Shown in pieces: positions 12,075 to 63,694 of a stretch of 64,000 bases of DNA. A program made the translations under genes and the position numbers. Source of the stretch: an uncultured beta proteobacterium (lineage in GTDB: Bacteria; Pseudomonadota; Gammaproteobacteria; Burkholderiales; SG8-41); contig CAWHFX010000017.1 in the NCBI GenBank assembly GCA_963828715.1, positions 59,578-123,577 on the forward strand. Reading direction: 5' to 3'. The number at the start of each line of letters is the position of its first letter. Position 1 is the first letter of the stretch. The notes below the pieces were generated by a model. The model worked only from the letters and a program-made list of their open reading frames with translations. It did not search any database and had not been told where the DNA came from.

Positions 12075-12698
12075 ATGGAAACAGACGATTCTCACGACGT
12101 CCTGACCTTCTGGTTCCCGGACCTGGCCGGCGCGGATCACGCGAGAATGGTCGCGCAGTTCCGATGGTGGTTCGGCGGCGGATCGGACGAGACGATCGGG
12201 AGCCGTTACCCCGCGCTGACTGAGCGTGCAGCGCGAGGCGAGCTCGATGGGTGGGCCGATGCGCCCCGCTCGCGTCTCGCGCTCATCATCGTCCTCGATC
12301 AGTTCTCACGCTCACTCTACAGGAACACGCCGCAGGCGTTCGCGCACGATCCGAAAGCGCTGGGGTTGACGCTTGCGGGCCTCGAGAATGGTCACTACGC
12401 GGCTCTGGAGACACCGTGGGAGAAGACCTTCTTTTTTCTTCCGCTCGGCCATTCCGAATACCTTCCTTATCAGGAGCGTGCGGTTACGCTGGCCGAAGAA
12501 CTCGTCGTCAGCGCGCCCGCGAAGTTCCGGAAGATCCTGGAACACTCGGCGTCCCAGGCTCGTGCGCATCGCGACGTCATCGCGCGTTTCGGGCGTCATC
12601 CTCATCGGAACATGATTCTCGGAAGGTCATCGACTGCCGCCGAGGTTGAATACCTCGCCACCACTCAACTGGTACACACGCGGCTGCCGGGAGCGTAG
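12075..12698 (+). CDS. DUF924 family protein
   Basis: FWF, LA.IIVLDQFSR, F..LP..HSE, H..VI.RFGR.PHRN..LGR.ST. Confidence 0.9.
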   Translation: METDDSHDVLTFWFPDLAGADHARMVAQFRWWFGGGSDETIGSRYPALTERAARGELDGWADAPRSRLALIIVLDQFSRSLYRNTPQAFAHDPKALGLTLAGLENGHYAALETPWEKTFFFLPLGHSEYLPYQERAVTLAEELVVSAPAKFRKILEHSASQARAHRDVIARFGRHPHRNMILGRSSTAAEVEYLATTQLVHTRLPGA

Positions 12699-12706
12699 CG
12701 GCGACC

Positions 12707-13981
12707 TTACGTGAGCCGCGCGTGCATCCAGCGCGCAACTGTGAAGAGCGTACGGTCGGCACCCGGTGCAGCGATCACTTGCGCGCCGATCGGGAGCCCG
12801 TTCGGTCCCGTGAATACCGGGATGCTCATGGTCGGCGTGTGCATGAGTGTCCACGGTGAGGCCAGCGTGGAATCGCCGGTGTTCCAACCGACGGGCGCTT
12901 CGCCGGTCGCCGCGGGCGCGAGCAAGACGTCGAAATCCGCGAAGACAGGCGCGAGCCCGCGACGGCAACGCTCGGCCAGCGCACGCGCTGCGCAGTAGCT
13001 TTCGAAGCTGCACTCGAGCCCGAGGCGGATCTTTCCGTTGCGCAGCTCTTCGCTGAGCTCGCTCCAGTGATGCCGGATTTCACGCGTGAAGTTGAGCGCG
13101 AACTCGCGACACGTAATCAGGCGATGTGCTTCTTCCGCCCGCTCGAATTCCGCCGGCAGCGTCGCGTCGGACACGTTCGCCCCGGCACGCGCCAGGCCGC
13201 GTGCGGCGTCTTCGAGGAGCGCCTGCGTCTGCGGCTCGAGCTTCGACCATTGAGGTGGCCGGACGAATCCGATCCGCGGGCGGCGCATGTCACCAGGCAG
13301 CGGCATCGGGTCGACGCCGATCAGCACGTCGCGGTGAAGCGCGATGTCCTCCACCGTGCGCGCATAGAACCCGACCGTATCGCACGAGCCGGACGACTCC
13401 ATCATGCCGGAGCAGCGTACGTCCCCGAACGTCGGACGATACGCGAAGACGCCGCAAAACGAGCCCGGTTTGATGGTCGAGCCCGTCGTTTGCGAACCGA
13501 GCGCAAGCGGCACCATGAAATCGGCGACCGCCGCGGCCGACCCGCTCGACGAGCCGCCCGGCGTCCGCGCCGGATCGAGCGGGTGACGCGTCTTCCCCGG
13601 ATAGTTCACGGCGAACTCGGCCGTGATGGTCTTGCCCATGACCACGCCGCCCGCCTTGCGCCCGAGGGCAACGCACGCGGCATCGCGCCCGGGGCGGTGC
13701 CCCGCATAGATAGGCGAGCCGTACGCGGTCGGCATGTCGCACGTATCGATGATGTCTTTAACGCCGAACGGAACGCCGCTGAGCGGGCCGGATGTGCCAC
13801 TGCGATCCAGAGCGCGTGCTTGCGCGATTGCCAGTTCACGATCGAGAAAGGCCCACGCGTGGACGGACGGCTCTCGCTCCGCAATGCGCTCCAGGCACGC
13901 GCGCGTGACCGCTTCGCAGGTCGTGCGGCCGGTGCGAACCGCAGTGACGATCTCGATCGCCGACAGTCTGTGAAGATCCAT
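12707..13981 (-). CDS. Amidase signature family enzyme
   Basis: GPL.GVP.GVKD, TPGGSSSGSAAAVA, GSQTTGS, GLPIG.Q. Confidence 0.93.
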   Translation of the reverse strand: MDLHRLSAIEIVTAVRTGRTTCEAVTRACLERIAEREPSVHAWAFLDRELAIAQARALDRSGTSGPLSGVPFGVKDIIDTCDMPTAYGSPIYAGHRPGRDAACVALGRKAGGVVMGKTITAEFAVNYPGKTRHPLDPARTPGGSSSGSAAAVADFMVPLALGSQTTGSTIKPGSFCGVFAYRPTFGDVRCSGMMESSGSCDTVGFYARTVEDIALHRDVLIGVDPMPLPGDMRRPRIGFVRPPQWSKLEPQTQALLEDAARGLARAGANVSDATLPAEFERAEEAHRLITCREFALNFTREIRHHWSELSEELRNGKIRLGLECSFESYCAARALAERCRRGLAPVFADFDVLLAPAATGEAPVGWNTGDSTLASPWTLMHTPTMSIPVFTGPNGLPIGAQVIAAPGADRTLFTVARWMHARLT

Positions 13982-55514: not shown

Positions 55515-56480
55515 ATGGTCTTGCGCATGATGTTGATCGGCGCGTCCATTGCATTGGCCACGGCCGCCGTGCAGGCCGCGGATGCGTATCCGGAGAAGCC
55601 CGTGCGCTTCGTGGTGCCGTTTCCTCCCGGCGGCGGCACGGACGGTTTCGCTCGCATTCTCGGCAGCAAGCTCACCGAGTTCTGGAACCAGCAGATCATC
55701 ATCGACAGTCGCGCCGGTGCGCAGGGCAGCGTCGGGACGGCGATCGGCGCCAAGGCTGCGCCGGACGGCTATACGCTCGTGCTCGCGCACTCCGGTTCCC
55801 TCGCGATCAATCCGCATCTCTACAGCAATCCCGGCTACGACACGCTCAGGGACTTCACTCCGGTATCGGGCGGCGTGAGCATGCCGTTCATCCTGGTCGT
55901 GCATCCGTCGGTGCCGGTGACCACGACAAAGGAGCTCGCGGCGCTCGCCCGTCAGAACCCGGGCAACCTCAGCTTTGCCTCCACGTCGGCCGGTCCGTGG
56001 GTCGTCGGCGAGCTGTTCAAGCTCACCACGAAGACCGACATGCTGCACGTGCCTTACAAGGGCGCCGGGCCGGCCATCATCGACCTGCTCACCGGCTATA
56101 TAACGATCATGTTCAGCGTGCCCTTCGCGTCGGTGCCGCACGTGAGCAGCGGCAAGCTGCGCGCGCTGACGATCTTCGGCGCCAAGCGCATCGAAGCGAT
56201 GCCGGACGTGCCGACTGCAGTGGAGGCGGGCTATCCCGAGCTGGGGAATGTGACGGAGTGGTACGGCGTCGTCGTTCCATCCGCCACTCCGCGCGACATC
56301 GTGGCGAAACTCAACGGCGCGGTCGTGAAGGCGCTGAGCGCGCCCGATGCGCAGAAGCGCATCGCTGCGATCGGGCAGTATCCCCAGCCGACCACGCCCG
56401 CGGAGTTCGGCCAGATCATCAAGGATGATTACGAACGCTGGGGCCGGGTGGTGAAGCAGGCGAACCTGAAGATCGAGTGA
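55515..56480 (+). CDS. Bug/TctC substrate-binding protein
   Basis: YPEKPVR.VVPFPPGGGTD, APDGYT, HVPYKG. Confidence 0.93.
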   Translation: MVLRMMLIGASIALATAAVQAADAYPEKPVRFVVPFPPGGGTDGFARILGSKLTEFWNQQIIIDSRAGAQGSVGTAIGAKAAPDGYTLVLAHSGSLAINPHLYSNPGYDTLRDFTPVSGGVSMPFILVVHPSVPVTTTKELAALARQNPGNLSFASTSAGPWVVGELFKLTTKTDMLHVPYKGAGPAIIDLLTGYITIMFSVPFASVPHVSSGKLRALTIFGAKRIEAMPDVPTAVEAGYPELGNVTEWYGVVVPSATPRDIVAKLNGAVVKALSAPDAQKRIAAIGQYPQPTTPAEFGQIIKDDYERWGRVVKQANLKIE

Positions 56481-56672
56481 CGGGAAGCGGGGAGTCTGGG
56501 CGAGCCACCGCCGGCGCAAGCACGCATGCAGCGATAACGGCGGCTCTCAAGGTTCGCATGATCCGAAAGCGCGTTAGCGTACAGACAAAAGACCGATCAA
56601 GTGCGTAGTGTCTCAGGGAAGACCCGGTAGAGTCAGCTTGATTCGCAAGTGTTGGCAAAAAAGGAGCGCCTC

Positions 56673-57110
56673 ATGATCGATACCCGCACGGCACCCTATG
56701 CCGCACTCGTGCTGCGGCTTTCGCTTTCATTCCTGTTTTTCGCGCATCTGTACCGGAAGTTTCAGGTGATGGGTTTCGACACGTGGTGGAGCGGCATGGA
56801 AAAGGCGGGCTATGCGGACTGGGTGATCTATTACACCCTGGCAGCGGAGTTTGCGGGCGCCATATTGCTCTTGCTTGGGGTCTATTCGCGATATGTAAGC
56901 ATTCTCGTACTTCCAGTGATGATAGCGATCGTGTACCACCAGGCCACTCGCAAAGGCTTCTGGTTTTCGGATGGAGGCGCCGAGTTTCCCCTCGCGTGGA
57001 CCTTCATTCTTTGTGCGCAGGCATTGCTGGGTGACGGCAAGTATGCATTGCGAGTACCGGCGATGCCGTGGAATCGGACCCCGCGAGCGCTCGTCGCTGC
57101 GAAGGCCTAG
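56673..57110 (+). CDS. DoxX family membrane protein
   Basis: LVLR......F.AH...K, E..G..LL.LG...R, GG.EFP, LLGDG.YAL. Confidence 0.88.
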   Translation: MIDTRTAPYAALVLRLSLSFLFFAHLYRKFQVMGFDTWWSGMEKAGYADWVIYYTLAAEFAGAILLLLGVYSRYVSILVLPVMIAIVYHQATRKGFWFSDGGAEFPLAWTFILCAQALLGDGKYALRVPAMPWNRTPRALVAAKA

Positions 57111-57180
57111 CTAGGGCTGCTCCTCAGGGTGAACGGGAGTCGATCGGTGCGGCGCGATCGATCGCTTACAGTACCGTCGC

Positions 57181-57432
57181 ATGAACAAACCTCGCGACGC
57201 CGGCGCAAGCGTGCCCGCCGATCTGCACTTCCTCACGCTTGCCCAGGCGAGTCGCCTGCTCGAAACCAAAGCGCTTTCGCCGGTGGATTACGTGACTGCG
57301 CTCATCGCGCGCATCGATGCGCTCGACGGCCAGTTGAACGCGTTCATCACGCGGACGAACGATCTCGCATTGAAGCAGGCGCGAATCGCGGACAACGAGA
57401 TCGCGAGCGGCCGTTATCGCGGTCCGCTGCAT
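57181..57432 (+). pseudogene. Amidase (GatA-like) N-terminal fragment, truncated
   Basis: LSPV......ARI...D..LNAF......AL.QA..AD.EI..G.YRGPLH, then homology stops before the catalytic G.P...KD. Confidence 0.8.
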
Positions 57433-57458
57433 TCCATAAAGCCGAGGCGTCCACGGGA

Positions 57459-57542
57459 ATGTCCGCTTCGAGAAACACGACTGACCGCAATGGGTCGTCA
57501 GTTGCCTATCCTCAAGTGCTGAAGTCGGCCACAAGCGGACAT
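57459..57542. repeat. Nested inverted-repeat element at the insertion junction
   Basis: ATGTCCGCTT (57459-68) / AAGCGGACAT (57533-42); inner ACTGAC/GTCAGT around CGCAATGGGTC. Confidence 0.65.
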
Positions 57543-57846
57543 CGGCTGTTACGTTCAAAATGACGATAGATCGACGACACCGGCGTTGTCACGCTGATAC
57601 AACGCTTTGACTCGTCCGCCAACTTGAACATCCTTCTGCATGGTCGGATGTCGCGCTCACCTCAAAAGCGCCTGGCCCGACGACACCACGCATATGGAGA
57701 TGTCGCCGCCCGATGGCGCCGCGGCCTGCGGCTCGGCATCGCTTGCGCGGGTGGGTGTGCCAACCACGGCCGCTACTGGCGCTGAAACGAGAGCAGCGGC
57801 GCAGCCCCGGCCAATCGTCCAACACCACAACGAACGGGACCAGGAA

Positions 57847-60795
57847 GTGACGCAGTCAACCCAAGCACCGGTGGATGCGGCAATGTCCTTCCCGGCGGCC
57901 GATGTGGGCGACAGCCCAGCGCCGAAACGCAACTTCGCTGCGCGGCTCTTTGGCTACGACCTGTTCATCTCGTTTGCGCTCGGCCCGGCGCCGCGCGGCA
58001 GCCTCAGCTATGCGTCTGACCTGGCGCGCCGGCTGCGGGAGCGCGACTTCAGCGTGTTTTTCAGCGAAGACGAAGCGCCACCCGGCGAACGTCTGGACAG
58101 CACCTTGCTCAAGGCGTTACACAGCTCGCGGCTGCTCGTGGTCATTGCCAACCGCGGCACGCTGGAACAGCCGCGCTGGGTGCGCAAGGAGGTTGAAGAG
58201 TTCCGGCGCCGCCATCCTGGCCGGCCCATCATTCCCATCAGTGTTGGCGGCGCCCTCCAGGACCCGGCGCTGGCAGCCGCTGCGCAGGAGTGGCTCGTCT
58301 TCCAGGACAAGATCTGGCTTGACGAGTGCACCGAAGCGGCCAGTGACGGCATTGCCAGCAAGGCGGTACTCGAACGCCTGGCTATGGCGCCGACCCGCGT
58401 GCGCGCGAACGTGTGGTGGCGCTGGCTGGTACGCGGGGTGATGGCGGTCCTGGCCACGCTGGCGGTCGCCCTGGGTGTCGCGGCCAAGGTGGCCGCCGAC
58501 AGCGCCGAACGCGCGCGAGACGAGTTGCGCCGCGCGGTCTCACTTCGCCTCATCGGCGAGGCGCCGGCCATGCTCGACGGCGCGAGAGCCGGCGGCGACG
58601 AGCAGACGCTGCAGCAGGTGCTGGTGGCGCAGCGGTTGGCGGGGCCGTCGGCCGAGGCGGACCGCGCGCTCCTCTCCACTCTGAAGGCCGTGCCGCACTT
58701 GAGCAAGGCAGTCAACACCGGCCTGCGCATCGGCGACGTGGCTTTCAGCCGTGACGGCACGCACGTGGTGTCCGGCGCCAGCGACGGCTCGCTGCAGGTT
58801 TGGGACGCTTCAACGCTGCAGGCGCTGGGCGCGGCGCTCAAGTCCACGCAGAATGACATCTCGACCCTTTCGCTCAGTGCCGACGGCAAGACCCTGGTTG
58901 CCGGCAGCTCGGACGGCACGCTACAGCTGTGGGATCTGGTCACCCGCAAGCCGCTGGGCGAAGCGATGAAGGCGCACAAGAACGAAGCGCCGCCCTGGTC
59001 AGACTTTGGCGTGCAGACGGTTGCCATCAGCCCGGATGGCCGCCGTGCCGCATCGGCCGGCTGGGACTGGACACTCAAGTTGTGGGACACCAAGGCCGCG
59101 AAACTGGAAGGCAAGCCCCTCATGGAAGCGGAGGGGTTTGTCAATCGGGCGATCGCGTTCAACGCCGACGGCTCGCGCATCACGGCAGCCGGGAACGAAC
59201 TGGTGCTTCGCCTGTGGAACGCCGACACGCGCGAACTGCTGGCGACGCTCGACTTGCGAAAGGCGTTCCAGGGTGATGACGATGTGGCCGGCCTGGCCTT
59301 CAGTCCGGCGGGCACCGACGGGTTTGCCATCGTTGCCGGCACCGAACACAAAGGGGTGTGGCTCTGGAATGCCAAGACCGGCCAGCGCCGCTTGCTGGAA
59401 GGCACGCCGTCGGGCAAGGTAACCCGCGTGACCTTCAGCGCCGACGGACTGCGGGTGCTGGCGTCGACCGAAAGCGGCAGGGTGCAGGTGTGGAATGCGG
59501 CCACCGGCAAGCCGGTCGGCGCACTGCAGGCCGGGGCCGACGGATCGCTTACCGCGGTGGACTTCAGCCTGGACGGCGGTACCGTCGTATCCGGCGATCA
59601 GGACGGCAGACTGCGGCTGTGGGACATCGCGGGCCGACATTCGTTGCTGGCGGTGCTGAAGCCTGGCCACGAGGACGAACGCAACCTCGTCTTCGGCACC
59701 AACGGTGCGTTGCTCGCCGTTGGCAACACCGCGGGCAAGGTGGAACTGCGCAGCATGGAGGGCGGGCATGTGGTCCGTGCCCTGCCGGGCGCAGCGGCAC
59801 GGGACGCCAACCTCGTGGCGCTCAGCGCCGACGGGATGAGGCTGGTCACGACCAGCATGCCCGCAATCCGGTCTCCGAATGCCACCGGTAACACCCCGGC
59901 CCGCGAAGCTGGCGACGAGGCCACGCTGAGCTCAGGCGCATTCATGCAGCTGTGGAACACCGAGACCGGCTACCCCATCGGCGAACCCGTGAAGGCCCAG
60001 CACCGCCGGATCTTCAATGGCGCTGCCTTCCGGTTCGACGGCGCGCGATTCGTCACCTATGAACAGGAGGGCGACACACCGGGAGACTACACACAGGTCG
60101 ACGGACGGCTTCAGGTGTGGGATGCCAACACCGGCCAAGCGATCGGCGAGCCGCTGACAGGCCACCGAGGCGGCATACGGCATGCGGCGTTCGATCCGCA
60201 AGGCACGACGCTCGTCTCGGCCGGCGCGGACGGCACGCTGCGGCTTTGGGACGCCGAGCGCCAGCTGTCGCTACCAGCGCCCGCCATGTTGCATGAAGAC
60301 GTCGCGGTGGTCGCGTTCAGCCTTGACGGGCGCCAGATCGTCTCGGGCGCCGACAACGGCAGCGTGAAGGTTTGGGACGTGAACGCCGGCGCCAAGGCGG
60401 ACGTGTCGGCCTCCGGCAAGGCACGCCCCAGGCTCGATGTGAAGTTCAGCGAGACTCAGATCTGGGCCGTGGCCTTCAGCCCCGACGGTGCGCGCGTCTT
60501 CGCCAGTGGCAGCGACGGGGTGCGGCTGTGGAATGCGCATAGCGGCCACCTTATCGGCAGCCTTCCGCGCTCGGCGCAGCACGGGCCGGTGTTTGGTCTG
60601 GCGTTCAATCCTCAAGGCACGATGCTCGGCTACACCAAAGCCGGCTTCGTGATTCAGTGGGCGCAGGCCGCCGTGTGGGCTGAGCTACTGTGTGCCAGGC
60701 TCACGCGCAACATGGGTCGCCAGGCATGGAAGGAACTGGTATCGCCGGAGATCGACTATCAAGTCCAGTGCCCCAGCCTGCCGGCTACCCCTTAG
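57847..60795 (+). CDS. TIR domain - hydrophobic helix - WD40 repeat protein
   Basis: YDLFISF...F....PGE......L..S..LVV.......WVRKEV (TIR); WLVRGVMAVLATLAVALGVAA; 14 WD-type blades; start uncertain (57640, 57847 or 57883). Confidence 0.9.
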   Translation: MTQSTQAPVDAAMSFPAADVGDSPAPKRNFAARLFGYDLFISFALGPAPRGSLSYASDLARRLRERDFSVFFSEDEAPPGERLDSTLLKALHSSRLLVVIANRGTLEQPRWVRKEVEEFRRRHPGRPIIPISVGGALQDPALAAAAQEWLVFQDKIWLDECTEAASDGIASKAVLERLAMAPTRVRANVWWRWLVRGVMAVLATLAVALGVAAKVAADSAERARDELRRAVSLRLIGEAPAMLDGARAGGDEQTLQQVLVAQRLAGPSAEADRALLSTLKAVPHLSKAVNTGLRIGDVAFSRDGTHVVSGASDGSLQVWDASTLQALGAALKSTQNDISTLSLSADGKTLVAGSSDGTLQLWDLVTRKPLGEAMKAHKNEAPPWSDFGVQTVAISPDGRRAASAGWDWTLKLWDTKAAKLEGKPLMEAEGFVNRAIAFNADGSRITAAGNELVLRLWNADTRELLATLDLRKAFQGDDDVAGLAFSPAGTDGFAIVAGTEHKGVWLWNAKTGQRRLLEGTPSGKVTRVTFSADGLRVLASTESGRVQVWNAATGKPVGALQAGADGSLTAVDFSLDGGTVVSGDQDGRLRLWDIAGRHSLLAVLKPGHEDERNLVFGTNGALLAVGNTAGKVELRSMEGGHVVRALPGAAARDANLVALSADGMRLVTTSMPAIRSPNATGNTPAREAGDEATLSSGAFMQLWNTETGYPIGEPVKAQHRRIFNGAAFRFDGARFVTYEQEGDTPGDYTQVDGRLQVWDANTGQAIGEPLTGHRGGIRHAAFDPQGTTLVSAGADGTLRLWDAERQLSLPAPAMLHEDVAVVAFSLDGRQIVSGADNGSVKVWDVNAGAKADVSASGKARPRLDVKFSETQIWAVAFSPDGARVFASGSDGVRLWNAHSGHLIGSLPRSAQHGPVFGLAFNPQGTMLGYTKAGFVIQWAQAAVWAELLCARLTRNMGRQAWKELVSPEIDYQVQCPSLPATP

Positions 60796-60819
60796 CGGTC
60801 GAATACCATTTAGGACAAA

Positions 60820-61845
60820 TCATTCGCCCTTGATGCCGGCTTCCTTCACCACGCGCGCCCACTTCGGGACTTCACGTTTCAGATGTGCTTCGAAGGCTTC
60901 GGGGCTGCTGCCTGCAGCGTCGAGGCCCTGCCGACTCATCTGTTCGACGGTGTCGGGAAGTCGCAGTGCGTTCAGGAGCGCTGTATTGAGCCTGACGACA
61001 CGGACGCGCGGCGTACGGGCCGGGAACACGAGACCGTACCATGCGGTTACCTCGAATCCTGGATAACCAAGCTCCGCGATCGTTGGGATCTCGGGTGCGA
61101 TGGTAGTGCGCGTCGCGCCGGTCACCCCGAGTGCGACGAGCTTGCCCGCCTTCACCTGCGGCAGCGTCGCCGGAATGCTCGCGACCAGCAGGTGCGCTTC
61201 TCCCGTGATCACAGCGGTGGCTGCGGGGGCGCCGCCCTTGTATGCAACGTGCACGAGATCGATGCCTGTCGCCTGCTTGAGCAATTCCGCCCCGAGATGT
61301 GAAGGTGAGCCGCTGCCGGCCGTGGAGTAGTTCAACTGCGCCGGACGCGCTTTCGCGTAGGCGACGAACTCCTTGAGCGTTCGCGGTATCGAGGGATGGG
61401 TTACAACGATGTACTGCGATGTGGCAACCAGGCCTACCGGCGCGAAGTCGCCGATGGGATCGTACGGAACGCGCTGGATCGCCGGGCTGAATGCGAGATT
61501 GCCGTTGAAGCCGAGCAGCATCGTGGACCCGTCGGGCGACGCGCGCGCGGCGATCTCGGTGGCGATGATGCCGCCTCCGCCCGCGCGGTTGTCTACGATG
61601 ATCTGCTGGCCCATGGAATCCGTGAGCTTCTGGGCCAAAATGCGCGCCAGCGCGTCGCTCGCGCCGCCCGGCGGATTGGGAACGAGAAATCGAATCGGCT
61701 GTCCCGATCCGTTCGCGGCATCGGCACCCGTGGCGGTGCCCGCCATCAGCAGAGCCGCGAGCACCAGCGCGGCAGCACACCGTCTTCTGCTCCGTACGCC
61801 GACGAGACCCAACCCAAAGGCGGGGGCCATCCCGATCAGCCGCAT
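60820..61845 (-). CDS. Bug/TctC substrate-binding protein
   Basis: PIRFLVP.PPGG.SD, DNRAG.GG, HVAYKGG. Confidence 0.9.
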   Translation of the reverse strand: MRLIGMAPAFGLGLVGVRSRRRCAAALVLAALLMAGTATGADAANGSGQPIRFLVPNPPGGASDALARILAQKLTDSMGQQIIVDNRAGGGGIIATEIAARASPDGSTMLLGFNGNLAFSPAIQRVPYDPIGDFAPVGLVATSQYIVVTHPSIPRTLKEFVAYAKARPAQLNYSTAGSGSPSHLGAELLKQATGIDLVHVAYKGGAPAATAVITGEAHLLVASIPATLPQVKAGKLVALGVTGATRTTIAPEIPTIAELGYPGFEVTAWYGLVFPARTPRVRVVRLNTALLNALRLPDTVEQMSRQGLDAAGSSPEAFEAHLKREVPKWARVVKEAGIKGE

Positions 61846-62573
61846 TGCTCCACGAACGGCGCGGTGAGGTCGGACAGCCGCACCCTCTGCTTGCCCTCCG
61901 CGTCGAAGTTGTCAGGATGTAGCCATTGCTCGAATGCGGGCTGCAGCCGCGGCCAGTCGCGATCGAGTATCGAGAACCACGTCGTATCGCGGTTGCGTCC
62001 CCGCCACAGCACGGCCTGGCGGAACAGGCCCTCGTAGCAAAATCCCAGTCGTGTCGCGGCCGCACGCGATGGCGCGTTGAGCGAGTTGCACTTCCATTCG
62101 TAACGCCGATAGCCCGAGTCGAACGCGTGCTTCATCATGAGATACATCGCCTCGGTCGCGGCGCGCGTACGCTGGAGCAGCGGTGAAAACGCGAGATGCC
62201 CCACTTCGATCACGCCGTTCTGCACGTCGATACGCAGATAGCTTGCAACGCCGACGGCTTTACTCGTGTCCCGATCGACGATCGCATAGAAGAGCGGATC
62301 TTCACTGCGCGCGAATTTCTCGGCCCACTCGCGGTATGCGTCGAGTGTTTGAAACGGGCCGTAGGACAGATAGGTCCACATGCGGCCTTCGCGGTCGAGC
62401 GCGTTCACTTCGAACAGCGCTTCAGCATGCTTTTCGACGCTCAGACGCTCGACGCGGCAGTAGCGGCCGTTCAGCGGTTCGCGTGTGGGCGGCTGCGCGG
62501 GTTTCCAGTTCGGCACCGGCAAGCCGACAGGCTGGCCGAGATGGTTGAGTTCCGATTCGCTTGGCGTTGTCAT
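61836..62573 (-). CDS. GNAT N-acetyltransferase (RimJ/RimL-like)
   Basis: WTYL.YGPF, G.IEVG, LQRT.AATEA.YL, GYRR.EWKC..LN.PS..AA.RLGF, RNRDT.W.S. Confidence 0.93.
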   Translation of the reverse strand: MTTPSESELNHLGQPVGLPVPNWKPAQPPTREPLNGRYCRVERLSVEKHAEALFEVNALDREGRMWTYLSYGPFQTLDAYREWAEKFARSEDPLFYAIVDRDTSKAVGVASYLRIDVQNGVIEVGHLAFSPLLQRTRAATEAMYLMMKHAFDSGYRRYEWKCNSLNAPSRAAATRLGFCYEGLFRQAVLWRGRNRDTTWFSILDRDWPRLQPAFEQWLHPDNFDAEGKQRVRLSDLTAPFVEQCG

Positions 62574-62599
62574 TGCTGCCCTTTATCCCGGCTTCCTCC

Positions 62600-62694
62600 G
62601 CCGCCCTAACCCTCGCACTCTCGGACGAGAGTTCTAAATTTCGCTTGAATGTCACTTCGCGGCGGACACGCTGTCCCAGCGGCCGCCGCTCACC
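62600..62694 (-). repeat. 95-bp element, single full copy
   Basis: Reverse complement GGTGAGCGGCGGCCGCTGGGACAGCGTGTCCGCCGCGAAGTGACATTC...TTAGAACTCTCGTCCGAGAGTGCGAGGG. Confidence 0.9.
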
Positions 62695-62721
62695 GGAACG
62701 CGGCAGTTCTGTCGACCGCGT

Positions 62722-63694
62722 TCACTGCACCTTCATGCCGATCTGCTTGATCAGCTTCCCGAGCTCGGCGTACTCGTCACGCTGAAGTCTGGCGAACTCT
62801 TCCGGCGTGCTCGGCCGGGGCTCGGCTCCCGCGCGAATGATCTTCTCGCGCGTGGAGGGCTCCTTCAGGTACCTTGACCGTGTCTGCATTCAGTCGGGTG
62901 ATGAGCTGGCGCGGCAACGCGCGCGGGGCGACCATGCCGAACCACGATTCCGAGATGTACTCGGGGAATCCCGCTTCAGCACTCGTCGGCAGCTCGGGAA
63001 GCGCCTCGGCCCGCCTGGGCGAAGCAACCGCAAGCGCGCGGAACTGCCCGGCGCGAATGCCGCCCACGATCGCCGGCAGCGGATAGATGTAATACTGGAT
63101 CGCGCCCGAAAGCAGCGCGCTGCGACTGTCGCCGCCGGCCCGAAACGGAACGTGGACGACGTCGATTTTCGCCTTGGATGCGAACAGGGCGCCTGCCAGA
63201 TGAGACGAGCTTCCCACGCCGGCAGAGCCATAGTTGAGCGCCCCCGGCTTTGCTCTTGCGAGTTTGATGAGCTCCGGGATCGTCTTTGCTTCGACGCCTT
63301 TGCCGAGAACGATCACGTTGGGTGTGACGCCGACGAGGCCAACCGATGCGAAATCGTTCAGCGGATCGTACGGTTTAGGGTCGCGCATCAGCACGTTCGA
63401 GAGATGGGGCTGGCCCACCATTCCGAACGTGTAGCCGTCCGGCGCCGAGCTGCGTATGAGCTCGCTGCCGATCAGGCCGCCCGCGCCAGGTCGATTGTCG
63501 ACGACCAACTGCTGGCCATAGATGTGTGAAAGCCGCTCGCCGAGTATTCGGCTGAGCGCATCGCTCGCCGCCGTGTTGGGGAACGGAACGATCATACGGA
63601 TCGGCTTGCTGGGCCACTTATCCTGAGCGATGGCGAGGCCACACGTGGCCGCGACTACGATGCACCCGGCGATGCAGCGGCGAAAGGTTCTCAC
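62722..63694 (-). CDS. Bug/TctC substrate-binding protein, frameshifted at ~62868
   Basis: WPSKPIRMIVPF, DNRPGAGG, APDGYT; GGAGG RBS before GTG; removing one base restores VKVLKEP... Confidence 0.88.

Follow-up and report, generated by a model that had tools for sequence, protein, structure and literature searches.

NTPase-less TIR-helix-WD40 proteins, a large bacterial family of candidate transmembrane sensor-effectors

Introduction

In the bacterial TIR effectors known so far, activation takes place within the cell and is brought about by a partner, a nucleotide signal or a STAND NTPase. The closest described architectures are nSTAND1-helix-WD40 and TIR-nSTAND1-helix-WD40, which count among the 'conflict systems' of Kaur, Burroughs, Iyer and Aravind (eLife 2020, 2021; Pfam PF20703). 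They have a hydrophobic helix, a neck, propellers and a Cys-pair cap in common with the family described in this study. However, the nSTAND1 systems carry an NTPase, whereas the present family has none and its TIR domain is joined straight to the helix. Therefore, any activation would have to work without a nucleotide switch.

The TIR domain has the same fold as the NAD-cleaving domains of L6, RUN1, RPV1, AbTir, BtTir, PdTIR and SARM1, and its catalytic Glu aligns with that of L6 and RUN1. Nevertheless, identity is about 20%, and the proteins of this family are predicted to be membrane-tethered, are fused to propellers and have a TIR motif of their own. As in Thoeris ThsB, the TIR effectors of CBASS and Pycsar and PDC-S66, the domain is probably an NAD-consuming effector. 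Membership in Thoeris was not found with the Pfam model ThsB_TIR (E=0.22) or the NCBIfam model ThcB4 (19.8 bits versus a cut-off of 220). The PADLOC comparison suggested in an earlier note on this DNA returned only weak partial matches, with PDC-S66 among them (E=1.6e-4, 19.2 bits, profile positions 148-224 of 282).

Animal Toll-like and IL-1 receptors resemble the layout predicted here in that a single membrane pass separates a sensor built of repeats from a cytoplasmic TIR domain, and by analogy ligand-driven association is a likely activation logic here as well. However, Toll-like receptors are type I proteins with an N-terminal LRR ectodomain and an adaptor-type C-terminal TIR domain. Here, the TIR domain is N-terminal, the predicted topology is type II, the sensor consists of WD40 rather than LRR or Ig repeats and the enzymatic-type Glu is kept. 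We found no evidence for common descent of the whole architecture with these receptors. A cytoplasmic catalytic domain followed by one helix and a sensor domain, as predicted here, also occurs in PknB-type kinases and in a TIR-TM-PASTA protein encoded at locus L019 of a relative, which has another TIR subtype and another sensor domain.

Results

Gene and domain architecture

On the + strand of the window, the whole stretch of 64,000 nucleotides that was analysed, the frame of the TIR-WD40 gene stays open between 57640 and 60795. The earlier note had placed the start at GTG 57847, giving 982 aa. ATG 57883 is the most likely start, and the database entry P0002, 99-100% identical, likewise has 970 aa. 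The exact codon is immaterial since the relatives are conserved only from about residue 25 of the 982-aa form onwards. GC content is 67.9% in the gene versus 63.8% for the window. The gene is intact and encodes five parts, a TIR domain, an Arg-rich stretch, a hydrophobic helix, 14 blades and a Cys-pair cap (Table 1). This set of features is far beyond chance, and more than 100 relatives share the TIR domain, the position of the helix and the cap.

The domain order read from the sequence in the earlier note was borne out throughout, with an N-terminal TIR domain that keeps the Glu in WVRKEV, an Arg-rich stretch ahead of a hydrophobic helix (together residues 170-201 in 970-aa numbering; the uncharged core is 17 residues long), 14 WD-type blades and a near-invariant terminal Cys pair. 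The same is true for the lack of a Walker A/STAND domain. A pattern search of the 970-aa protein detected no Walker A motif, and no NTPase family appeared in Pfam among the best 25 of the 54 families listed in one scan or in a second scan. Thus, a P-loop NTPase module of the STAND or NLR-like class (nSTAND1, NACHT, NB-ARC, Avs) was not found in this protein; in the AF2 model one helix and a short neck make up the interval between TIR domain and propellers.

Table 1. Positions in the window of the TIR-WD40 gene, its parts and its surroundings
Feature	Position	Strand	Details
Variable slot between two conserved TctC-type genes	56481..60819	.	DoxX, about 770 nt without convincing gene, TIR gene
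DoxX gene	56649-57110		inside variable slot
Whole gene, TIR-TM-neck-(WD40)14-cap	57883..60795	+	970 aa from ATG 57883
TIR domain	57934..58344	+	residues 18-154 of 970-aa form; Pfam TIR_2, AF2 models, Foldseek
Catalytic-type Glu, W-x-x-x-E motif	58189..58191	+	E103 (E115 in 982-aa numbering)
Arg-rich juxtamembrane stretch	58390..58434	+	residues 170-184; four Arg, zero acidic
Predicted transmembrane core	58435..58485	+	residues 185-201; hydropathy, AF2 helix
Helical neck ahead of first blade	58594..58689	+	helices 238-253 and 257-269; AF2 model
WD40 blades 1-7, first propeller	58699..59658	+	residues 273-592; AF2, Pfam
WD40 blades 8-14, second propeller	59677..60660	+	residues 599-926; AF2, Pfam, Foldseek
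C-terminal cap, 45 aa	60658..60792	+	C937 (60691-60693), C963 (60769-60771)

TIR domain

Pfam TIR_2 (PF13676) matched the N-terminus with E=1.8e-10 (41.8 bits, above the cut-off of 28), and the TIR domain of flax L6 (3ozi) was matched by sequence with E=3.5e-5. The Glu of WVRKEV aligned with the catalytic Glu of L6 and RUN1; an equivalent Glu is present in 121 of 121 aligned N-termini and the Trp of the motif in 119. The AF2 model of residues 1-179 (pLDDT 78) showed the flavodoxin-like alpha/beta fold of TIR domains. With this model Foldseek gave 114 matches at E<=1e-3 (best E 8e-7), the top ones all being TIR domains, with plant RPV1 and RUN1 first, followed by BtTir, PdTIR, AbTir and SARM1. 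Around the first strand and helix, the family has a strongly conserved motif of its own. C149 is the lone Cys of the TIR part, in a protein that has three. The suggestion that the domain is of the enzymatic type agrees with the invariance of the catalytic-type Glu, which makes it probably NAD-cleaving. A two-copy complex prediction of residues 18-272 scored 0.02 and was uninformative on self-association either way.

Hydrophobic helix and predicted topology

The hydrophobic core reaches a Kyte-Doolittle value of 2.16 over 19 aa and is embedded in a single modelled helix of 72 residues (160-231, 58360-58575; AF2). Of 120 relatives, 112 have a hydrophobic segment above 1.8 in the equivalent position, with a variable sequence; their uncharged core spans 15-25 residues and is flanked by Arg and Lys. 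In the 120 relatives the N-side flank contains on average 4.3 K/R and 0.08 D/E. The C-side flank is likewise rich in K/R (mean 3.6), which counts against a clear orientation. Nevertheless, in 114 of the 120 the TIR side has the higher net charge (means +4.2 versus +1.1). From the hydropathy scale and the positive-inside rule we infer membrane insertion with the TIR domain probably inside and the propellers outside. As a prediction, the cytoplasmic TIR domain and outer propellers proposed in the earlier note are thus the arrangement that the charge asymmetry favours.

Several observations from relatives bear on this orientation. Among the best 150 of 2925 matches to a cap profile, the domains N-terminal of the helix-neck-WD40-cap cassette (TIR, nSTAND1, caspase-nSTAND1 and AAA_35) all need cytoplasmic substrates. 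In L019, the gene of a TIR-TM-3xPASTA protein lies some 6 kb away from that of the family member. PASTA is an extracytoplasmic domain, and this protein would therefore support the TIR-in orientation by analogy, not by membership. On the other side, the TIR-helix module is elsewhere fused to TPR_10/TPR_12 repeats, which are typical of cytoplasmic STAND sensors, and this counts against propellers outside. The number of Cys after the helix was even in 69 and odd in 51 of 120 relatives, a weak signal for an oxidising compartment, and we rejected this count as a non-discriminating marker.

Neck, propellers and cap

A linker comparable to the neck follows the helix in other TIR and nSTAND1 proteins. 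The 14 blades are four-stranded in the AF2 model and form two seven-bladed rings (mean pLDDT 86.6), the second of which has a low-confidence insert at residues 663-680. Pfam WD40 (PF00400) matched in 8 stretches with E=7.5e-59, beta-propeller families of Pfam matched too, and the DNA repeats of the first-propeller blades are 60-71% alike. With the full model Foldseek returned only generic tandem propellers (2ymu) and Apaf-1. The C-terminal 84 aa matched no Pfam family.

C937 and C963 are the sole Cys after the helix. Both are invariant in the 25 sequences of alignment A2 and kept in 91 of 94 relatives with a detectable cap, with a joint loss in P0060. Of the cap-bearing proteins without a detectable hydrophobic helix, at least one (P0209) retains both Cys, and another (P0237) has lost one. 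Hence, the cassette apparently can work in the cytoplasm too, and since P0209 keeps both Cys without a helix, the pair is no proof of a disulfide.

A large family and a shared cassette

The NTPase-less TIR-helix-WD40 architecture is shared by no fewer than 311 database proteins and 65 species genomes. The guess that similar proteins are deposited as hypothetical was correct. All 65 loci found belong to diderm phyla. Across more than 90% of its first 330 residues, the protein is 45-79% identical to most of the 120 listed relatives, and it shares with them the TIR motif of the family, a helix at about residue 180-215 and the C-terminal Cys-pair cap. Our literature search found no paper describing this architecture; TIR-helix-neck-WD40-cap proteins are a large unstudied bacterial family. 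That the present copy is a deletion derivative of an NTPase protein, the case the earlier note had named against itself, is excluded, as members of this TIR family generally lack the NTPase.

The cap profile detected 2925 representative proteins at E<=1e-3. Among the best 150 of them, the helix-neck-WD40-cap cassette also lies downstream of nSTAND1, TIR-nSTAND1, caspase-nSTAND1 and AAA_35, and Pfam confirmed nSTAND1 in P0132, P0151 and P0237. The hydrophobic helix is present in 32 of 39 long cap-bearing proteins. The profile superseded a word search with the linker only (residues 196-300), which had found 13 close relatives and is no census of N-terminal domains. The description as a sensor without an NTPase therefore holds for this protein, but the same sensor cassette is also employed by nSTAND1 NTPases.

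The locus and its counterparts in relatives

The gene is located in a variable slot, next to DoxX and TctC-type genes of housekeeping character, and no known Thoeris, cyclase or other partner is encoded at the locus. In a genome of the same genus (G010) a gap of 509 bp separates the two flanking genes, with a BrnA-like small ORF as its sole content. A full-length TIR-WD40 orthologue was found in none of 40 related genomes. We detected no IS element, flanking direct repeat or tRNA marking an insertion and no Rfam family in 56000-63000, and a promoter and terminator scan gave nothing usable for the TIR-WD40 gene. An ORF of 144 aa (57129-57563) was rejected as a gene or partner; it is very Arg-rich, matches no Pfam family and gave no tblastn match in related loci or in the rest of the genome. 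At other loci, DoxX is unlinked to the family.

Near-identical DNA is present in root, rhizosphere and soil metagenomes. Pieces of the gene of 151-356 nt with 0-3 differences also occur in contigs of four soil metatranscriptome runs. These contigs do not cover DoxX, which is uninformative. As such contigs may stem from DNA carry-over and give no expression level, we make no claim of transcription.

At this locus the statement that there is no partner gene stands, but in about 40% of the relatives' loci a TIR-TPR-S and/or a patatin phospholipase gene is adjacent. Among 58 loci, TIR-TPR-S was found at 21 (and 2 further), patatin at 15 and another TIR gene at 4; when the count is restricted to the 42 loci with flanks of 3 kb or more in both directions, 16 had at least one of TIR-TPR-S and patatin and 9 had both. 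The neighbouring patatins match PADLOC models of CBASS-type phospholipase effectors with E down to 3e-44. Like the present gene, its three closest relatives (L009, L010 and L012) are solo, with neither partner within the fetched flanks. Nine solo loci were scanned. L009 and L010 adjoin type I R-M and AbiEi/helicase genes, L015 adjoins a gene for a large patatin-domain protein and L019 is set among TIR genes. The neighbours in L011, L014, L018, L023 and L032 are chiefly housekeeping or metabolic, as they are in this window, which counts against a defence reading; L023 also has an LRR-Roc GTPase gene nearby. In the genome studied here, another contig (C3) carries a cluster whose products are a patatin of 441 aa, a TPR-S protein of 706 aa, and SLATT and NUDIX proteins. 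The TPR-S protein is 28-31% identical over its full length to that of the relatives.

Discussion

In the best reading, to which we give a probability of roughly 0.45, the protein would serve a conflict or defence system as a type II, single-pass transmembrane sensor-effector that is triggered by clustering. The linkage to TIR-TPR-S and patatin genes, the defence genes near some solo loci, the patchy distribution and the variable slot all favour a conflict system. The protein would span the inner membrane once (N-in/C-out), with an enzymatic TIR domain in the cytoplasm. One long juxtamembrane-transmembrane-stalk helix would join it to the neck, the two propellers and a cap in the periplasm, where the Cys pair may form a disulfide. 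The propellers would bind a cue, e.g. a part of an incoming phage, envelope damage or a foreign cell-surface molecule. The bound cue may then gather receptor copies so that their TIR domains assemble and cleave NAD+, and the cell would stop through depletion or through an ADP-ribose-derived signal. The bolder claim, that bacteria have true transmembrane pattern-recognition receptors in which periplasmic disulfide-capped WD40 propellers, on sensing an extracytoplasmic cue, switch on a cytoplasmic NAD-cleaving TIR domain purely by clustering and without an NTPase, is possible and advanced here tentatively.

An alternative that we regard as unlikely is a multi-gene system. The TIR-WD40 protein would be one of its effector subunits and would act in trans, together with the C3 homologues, and sensing would fall to the TPR-S protein or a different partner. 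At many loci the TIR-TPR-S gene immediately precedes the TIR-WD40 gene in the same orientation, patatin is adjacent, and patatin and TPR-S homologues are clustered in this genome as well. However, about 60% of the loci, including this one, have neither gene within the fetched flanks, and the C3 proteins are only about 30-35% identical to the linked ones. Moreover, the linked or solo label needs at least 8 changes on a quick tree, which means that the linkage was repeatedly gained or lost.

We rate it as improbable that the propellers are intracellular and the protein is a STAND-type receptor that does without the NTPase, the helix being an oligomerisation element or a peripheral anchor. WD40 repeats of the G-beta type are chiefly cytoplasmic, the sensors of nSTAND1 NTPases, which the cassette also follows, are usually in direct contact with the NTPase, and both the swaps to TPR_10/TPR_12 and the helix-less P0237 and P0209 point in the same direction. 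Nevertheless, the helix is kept in most long cap-bearing proteins, and its uncharged, Arg/Lys-flanked core and strong positive-inside asymmetry argue for the membrane. Its sequence drifts while hydrophobicity is kept, which is typical of lipid-facing helices and not of protein interfaces.

Similarly improbable is a physiological receptor for envelope state or for neighbour cells in flocs, biofilms or the rhizosphere, whose TIR domain would make an NAD-derived messenger or a signalling platform. Many of the carriers belong to floc-, filament- or aggregate-forming groups (Zoogloea, Crenothrix, Nitrospira and Gallionella). The housekeeping neighbourhoods and the origin of near-identical DNA from roots, rhizosphere and soil would suit such a role, and Kaur et al. 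tie such systems to multicellular habits (PMC7159879). However, the distribution is patchy and the slot variable, and patatin and further TIR genes nearby are the typical company of suicide effectors. In addition, no conserved downstream receiver of a messenger adjoins the gene in the relatives' loci.

If the sensor-effector reading is true, a TIR domain, one helix and a repeat sensor would couple detection to NAD+ destruction in a different way, and no other bacterial system would come closer to Toll-type receptor logic. Under the bolder claim, the protein would amount to a functional counterpart of Toll-like receptors. Since the family is large (the TIR part retrieves at least 311 proteins and the cap 2925 representatives), findings on one member would generalise. 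As the same cassette follows nSTAND1, TIR-nSTAND1 and AAA_35, the bolder claim would also mean that a whole layer of bacterial NLR-like immunity senses across the inner membrane and not in the cytoplasm. Because nSTAND1 NTPases share the cassette, one may also ask by what means a membrane-crossing sensor would regulate them; the genome studied here itself encodes a pair of proteins of the nSTAND1-helix-WD40 and TIR-nSTAND1-helix-WD40 kind on contig C5.

Gene, start and protein architecture

The open frame of the gene allows two starts (table). The GTG named in the earlier note is possible, and conservation among relatives is absent before about position 25 of the form that begins there; residues are counted here from the ATG. 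In the AF2 model of the full-length protein (mean pLDDT 86.6, pTM 0.76) a TIR core, a long continuous helix, fourteen WD40 blades and a small cap follow each other. All elements listed in the earlier note were present when checked against the reading frame, Pfam, the model, the cysteines and the Walker A pattern. The protein contains three cysteines in total. A pattern search detected no Walker A motif in the 970-aa protein and no NTPase family is among the Pfam matches listed for it. The blades are old repeats and 60-71% alike at the DNA level.

Features of the gene, its product and the loci discussed
Feature	Position	Remark
Open frame, + strand	57640 to stop at 60793-60795	
ATG start	57883	970 aa, as in the matching database entry P0002
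GTG start	57847	982 aa
TIR core	residues 18-154	AF2 full-length model
Single continuous helix	residues 160-231	AF2 full-length model
Arg-rich stretch	residues 170-184	inside the helix
Uncharged 17-residue core	residues 185-201	inside the helix
Two short helices	residues 238-269	AF2 full-length model
14 four-stranded blades	residues 273-926	AF2 full-length model
C-terminal cap	after the blades	45 residues with two terminal helices; AF2 full-length model
Cysteines	C149; C937 and C963	TIR part; cap
144-aa ORF	57129-57563	probably not a gene
Possible left edge of a transferred unit	57710	
Intergenic repeat (probable)	62601-62694	about 92 nt
TIR gene, own genome, contig C5	L084:4072-5235	387 aa
nSTAND1-WD40 gene, contig C5	L084:5252-9772	1506 aa; hydrophobic segment at residues 585-603
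Patatin, SLATT, TPR-S and NUDIX cluster, own genome, contig C3	L083:5898-12174	441, 356, 706 and 193 aa
Type I restriction genes (HsdR, HsdS)	L009:11479-18409	
AbiEi antitoxin and DEAD/UvrD double helicase	L010:10960-18174	helicase 1732 aa
Other TIR genes at L019	L019:662-6551 and 12148-13554	

The N-terminal part scored 41.8 bits against Pfam TIR_2 (cut-off 28, E=1.8e-10), and a sequence search with it matched the TIR of flax L6 (E=3.5e-5) and also that of grapevine RUN1. The Glu of the W-V-R-K-E-V motif aligns with the catalytic Glu of L6 and RUN1; it is kept in all 121 aligned N-termini, and the Trp four residues upstream in 119 of them. Foldseek with a model of residues 1-179 (mean pLDDT 78) retrieved TIR domains exclusively, in the order of plant RPV1, RUN1, RPS4 and L7, then BtTir, PdTIR, AbTir and SARM1. 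Judged by its sequence, the domain is a member of the TIR superfamily with an enzymatic signature.

A family without NTPase

Of 8000 candidates scored in a search on residues 1-330, 311 proteins reached E<=1e-3. Most of the 120 that are listed are TIR+WD40 proteins of 900-1000 aa with 45-79% identity over more than 90% of residues 1-330; the names given by their sources, if any, do not go beyond 'TIR domain-containing protein' or 'WD40 repeat protein'. The earlier note had considered that orthologues might all carry an NTPase, which would make this copy a deletion derivative. In this large family the NTPase-less TIR+WD40 form is the rule, and the idea of a deletion product is therefore rejected. 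Scanning one genome per species with motifs specific to the family's own TIR subfamily, as distinct from other TIR subtypes, gave 65 loci in Beta-, Gamma-, Alpha- and Deltaproteobacteria, Acidobacteriota, Nitrospira, Chlorobi and Gemmatimonadota. All of these are diderm groups.

The C-terminal parts are shared more widely. The cap profile (46 positions), searched over 1.84 billion representative proteins, matched 2925 proteins at E<=1e-3, 432 of them at E<=1e-10. The composition of cap-bearing proteins was taken from the best 150 of the 2925 matches, among which 39 new proteins have at least 540 aa. In 32 of these 39 a hydrophobic segment (Kyte-Doolittle >=1.7) separates the N-terminal module from the propellers; 25 have a Walker A pattern ahead of that segment, and nine match the TIR profile of the family. 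Pfam on six N-terminal parts gave nSTAND1 (P0132), TIR_2 with nSTAND1 (P0151), caspase with nSTAND1 but without the helix (P0237), AAA_35 (P0213) and two other TIR subtypes (P0185, P0195). On contig C5 of the window's own genome a TIR gene is directly followed by an nSTAND1-WD40 gene, whose product has a hydrophobic segment between NTPase and propellers; this pair looks like an NTPase-containing counterpart of the TIR-helix-WD40 protein.

Another TIR subtype precedes helix, neck and WD40 in a same-genus genome (L003). Exchange is found on the other side of the helix as well: the family's TIR-helix module is joined to TPR_10/TPR_12 repeats in P0110 and P0114, to divergent propellers at L021 and to about 800 C-terminal residues without any Pfam family at L059, L062 and L063. 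Each of the latter three loci also carries a TPR-S gene. Taken together, the effector or switch modules at the N-terminus look exchangeable, as do the sensors at the C-terminus, with one hydrophobic helix connecting the two.

Comparison with known systems

The protein does not belong to STAND/NLR proteins because it has no NTPase, and it is not Thoeris ThsB because it scores far below the cut-offs and has no partner gene at its locus. By descent it is no Toll-like receptor either, because the orientation is opposite and the repeats are WD40. Kaur et al. 2020 (PMC7159879) and Kaur et al. 2021 (PMC8195603) described effector-NTPase-repeat conflict systems, some of them membrane-proximal, and defined nSTAND1; the available portions of both texts contain no TIR-helix-WD40 protein. 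In the available parts, the WD40 or TPR architectures that Lapin et al. 2022 (PMC9153377) list for bacteria are all of the TIR-NBD-WD40/TPR kind, and WD40 goes unmentioned by Toshchakov and Neuwald 2020 (PMC7075850). Full-text searches turned up no publication describing a TIR-transmembrane-WD40 protein from bacteria; the eLife supplementary tables of Kaur 2020 and 2021 may list some. TIR conflict effectors themselves are known, and we rate as new the proposed wiring of such an effector to a sensor across the membrane without an NTPase.

Proposed mechanism and linked genes

We favour, at a probability of about 45%, a membrane-spanning sensor-effector in which clustering drives NAD+ cleavage by the TIR. 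The propellers would bind a cue on the periplasmic side, binding would gather molecules together, and the cytoplasmic TIR domains would then assemble and cleave NAD+. For plant, SARM1 and bacterial TIRs it is established that the enzymes must self-associate; the rest of this chain we infer from anatomy and context.

It is unlikely that the protein is instead a subunit of a multi-gene system in which TPR-S and patatin act in trans. Neighbour clustering and tblastn across 58 loci of relatives found TPR-S (Pfam PF20308) in 21, in a protein of about 670 aa that is usually encoded immediately upstream and on the same strand; this count excludes L029 and L050, where TPR-S is present and was removed by an overlap filter. 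At the N-terminus of this protein is a weak TIR (E down to 1.6e-7 with the TIR effector model of PADLOC). In 15 of the 58 loci there is a patatin phospholipase (about 390 aa; PADLOC phospholipase effector models, E down to 3e-44) and in four a 517-aa protein with C-terminal TIR. When only the 42 loci flanked by 3 kb or more on each side are counted, TPR-S is present in 14, patatin in 11, either in 16 and both in nine. In a quick tree built from 56 rows (the window and 55 loci, three being left out for an early stop) the label linked or solo, that is, with or without these genes, needs 8 changes versus a shuffled mean of 17.6. The window groups there with solo L009, L010 and L012 and linked L013. 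Patatin, SLATT, TPR-S and NUDIX genes cluster on contig C3 of the own genome; the SLATT protein is of the two-TM effector type and encoded on the opposite strand. Patatin and TPR-S (28-31% identical over full length to the relatives' TPR-S protein) are homologues of the genes linked to the family elsewhere, but lie on a contig other than that of the window.

Helix, topology and cap

The sensor-effector reading places the helix in the membrane. A 19-residue hydrophobic window (Kyte-Doolittle >=1.8) keeps its position in 112 of the 120 listed relatives, and its sequence varies freely. In the 120 relatives the 15 residues on its N-side hold a mean of 4.3 K/R and 0.08 D/E, those on its C-side 3.6 and 2.5, and the net charge of the TIR-side flank exceeds that of the propeller-side flank in 114, equals it in five and falls below it in one. 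By the positive-inside rule this asymmetry predicts a cytoplasmic TIR and propellers outside. The domains found N-terminal of the same cassette agree with this prediction, as every one needs cytoplasmic substrates. At L019, where the family member has four or more other TIR genes around it, a 456-aa frame about 6 kb away encodes a different TIR, a hydrophobic helix and three PASTA domains, and two more genes have a hydrophobic segment after the TIR. Since PASTA is an established extracytoplasmic domain, these bacteria do have proteins with TIR inside and sensor outside.

The cap Cys pair is the best-conserved C-terminal feature, with both Cys in all 25 sequences of the family alignment. Of the 120 relatives, 94 have a recognisable cap, the other 26 being shortened or having another C-terminus. 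Both Cys are kept in 91 of the 94; of the remaining three caps, one lacks the first Cys, that of P0060 (Chloroherpeton) lacks both and one is partial. A structural disulfide would fit this pattern, which does not prove it. The number of Cys after the helix is even in only 69 of 120 relatives. P0209, a cap-bearing TIR-NTPase with no detectable hydrophobic helix, retains both cap Cys, and the first is lost in P0237, likewise without a helix. A helix that does not span the membrane, with cytoplasmic propellers, is in our estimate improbable. The available text of Doré et al. 2024 (PMC10907252) predicts conflict-system sensors in cytoplasm and periplasm alike.

Genomic context and occurrence

That the protein is a physiological receptor sensing the envelope or neighbouring cells is quite doubtful. 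Its gene neighbours in the window are of housekeeping type (acyl-CoA dehydrogenase, zinc alcohol dehydrogenase, several TctC-type receptors, GMC oxidoreductase, DoxX, GNAT). The closest relatives (63% identity), at L009 and L010, are in defence-island-like surroundings. These two belong to nine solo loci scanned with Pfam, of which L015 adjoins a 1078-aa patatin-domain protein, L019 is described above, and housekeeping or metabolic genes predominate around L011, L014, L018, L023 and L032, L023 having an LRR-Roc GTPase gene in addition. The own genome has ten separate Pfam TIR_2 matches above the cut-off, on eight contigs, and is unusually TIR-rich.

The gene is accessory, and the slot in which it sits is variable. 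A search of 40 related genomes, of which 12 belong to the same genus, did not find the full-length gene; matches were at WD40 level only. The flanking TctC-type genes are 4340 bp apart in the window versus 509 bp in a same-genus genome (G010, contig C41, L086). There the slot contains only a 119-aa ORF that, read from its sequence, looks like a BrnA-type antitoxin; the slot therefore receives varying cargo. GC content is 67.9% in the gene versus 63.8% in the window, and a repeat search found no IS element or direct repeat marking the gene ends.

In X18 and X21, two RNA-library runs of soil, contigs align with the window from 57710 on and share the same unrelated sequence before that point, so that the gene and a leader of about 170 nt stand in another context in those populations. 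The very Arg-rich 144-aa ORF further upstream matches no Pfam family, no related locus and no other part of the genome; without it, about 770 nt ahead of the TIR gene are apparently non-coding. Downstream, the probable dispersed intergenic repeat recurs at 87-91% identity: the genome has at least four further copies (two on contig C2, one each on C13 and C10), and G010 has it too. It matches neither a tRNA nor an Rfam family and folds modestly better than shuffles (z=-2.2).

Short pieces of the gene occur in contigs of four soil RNA libraries, which does not prove transcription. Near-identical DNA (at least half of the sampled words) was present in 10 public metagenome runs from root, rhizosphere or soil.
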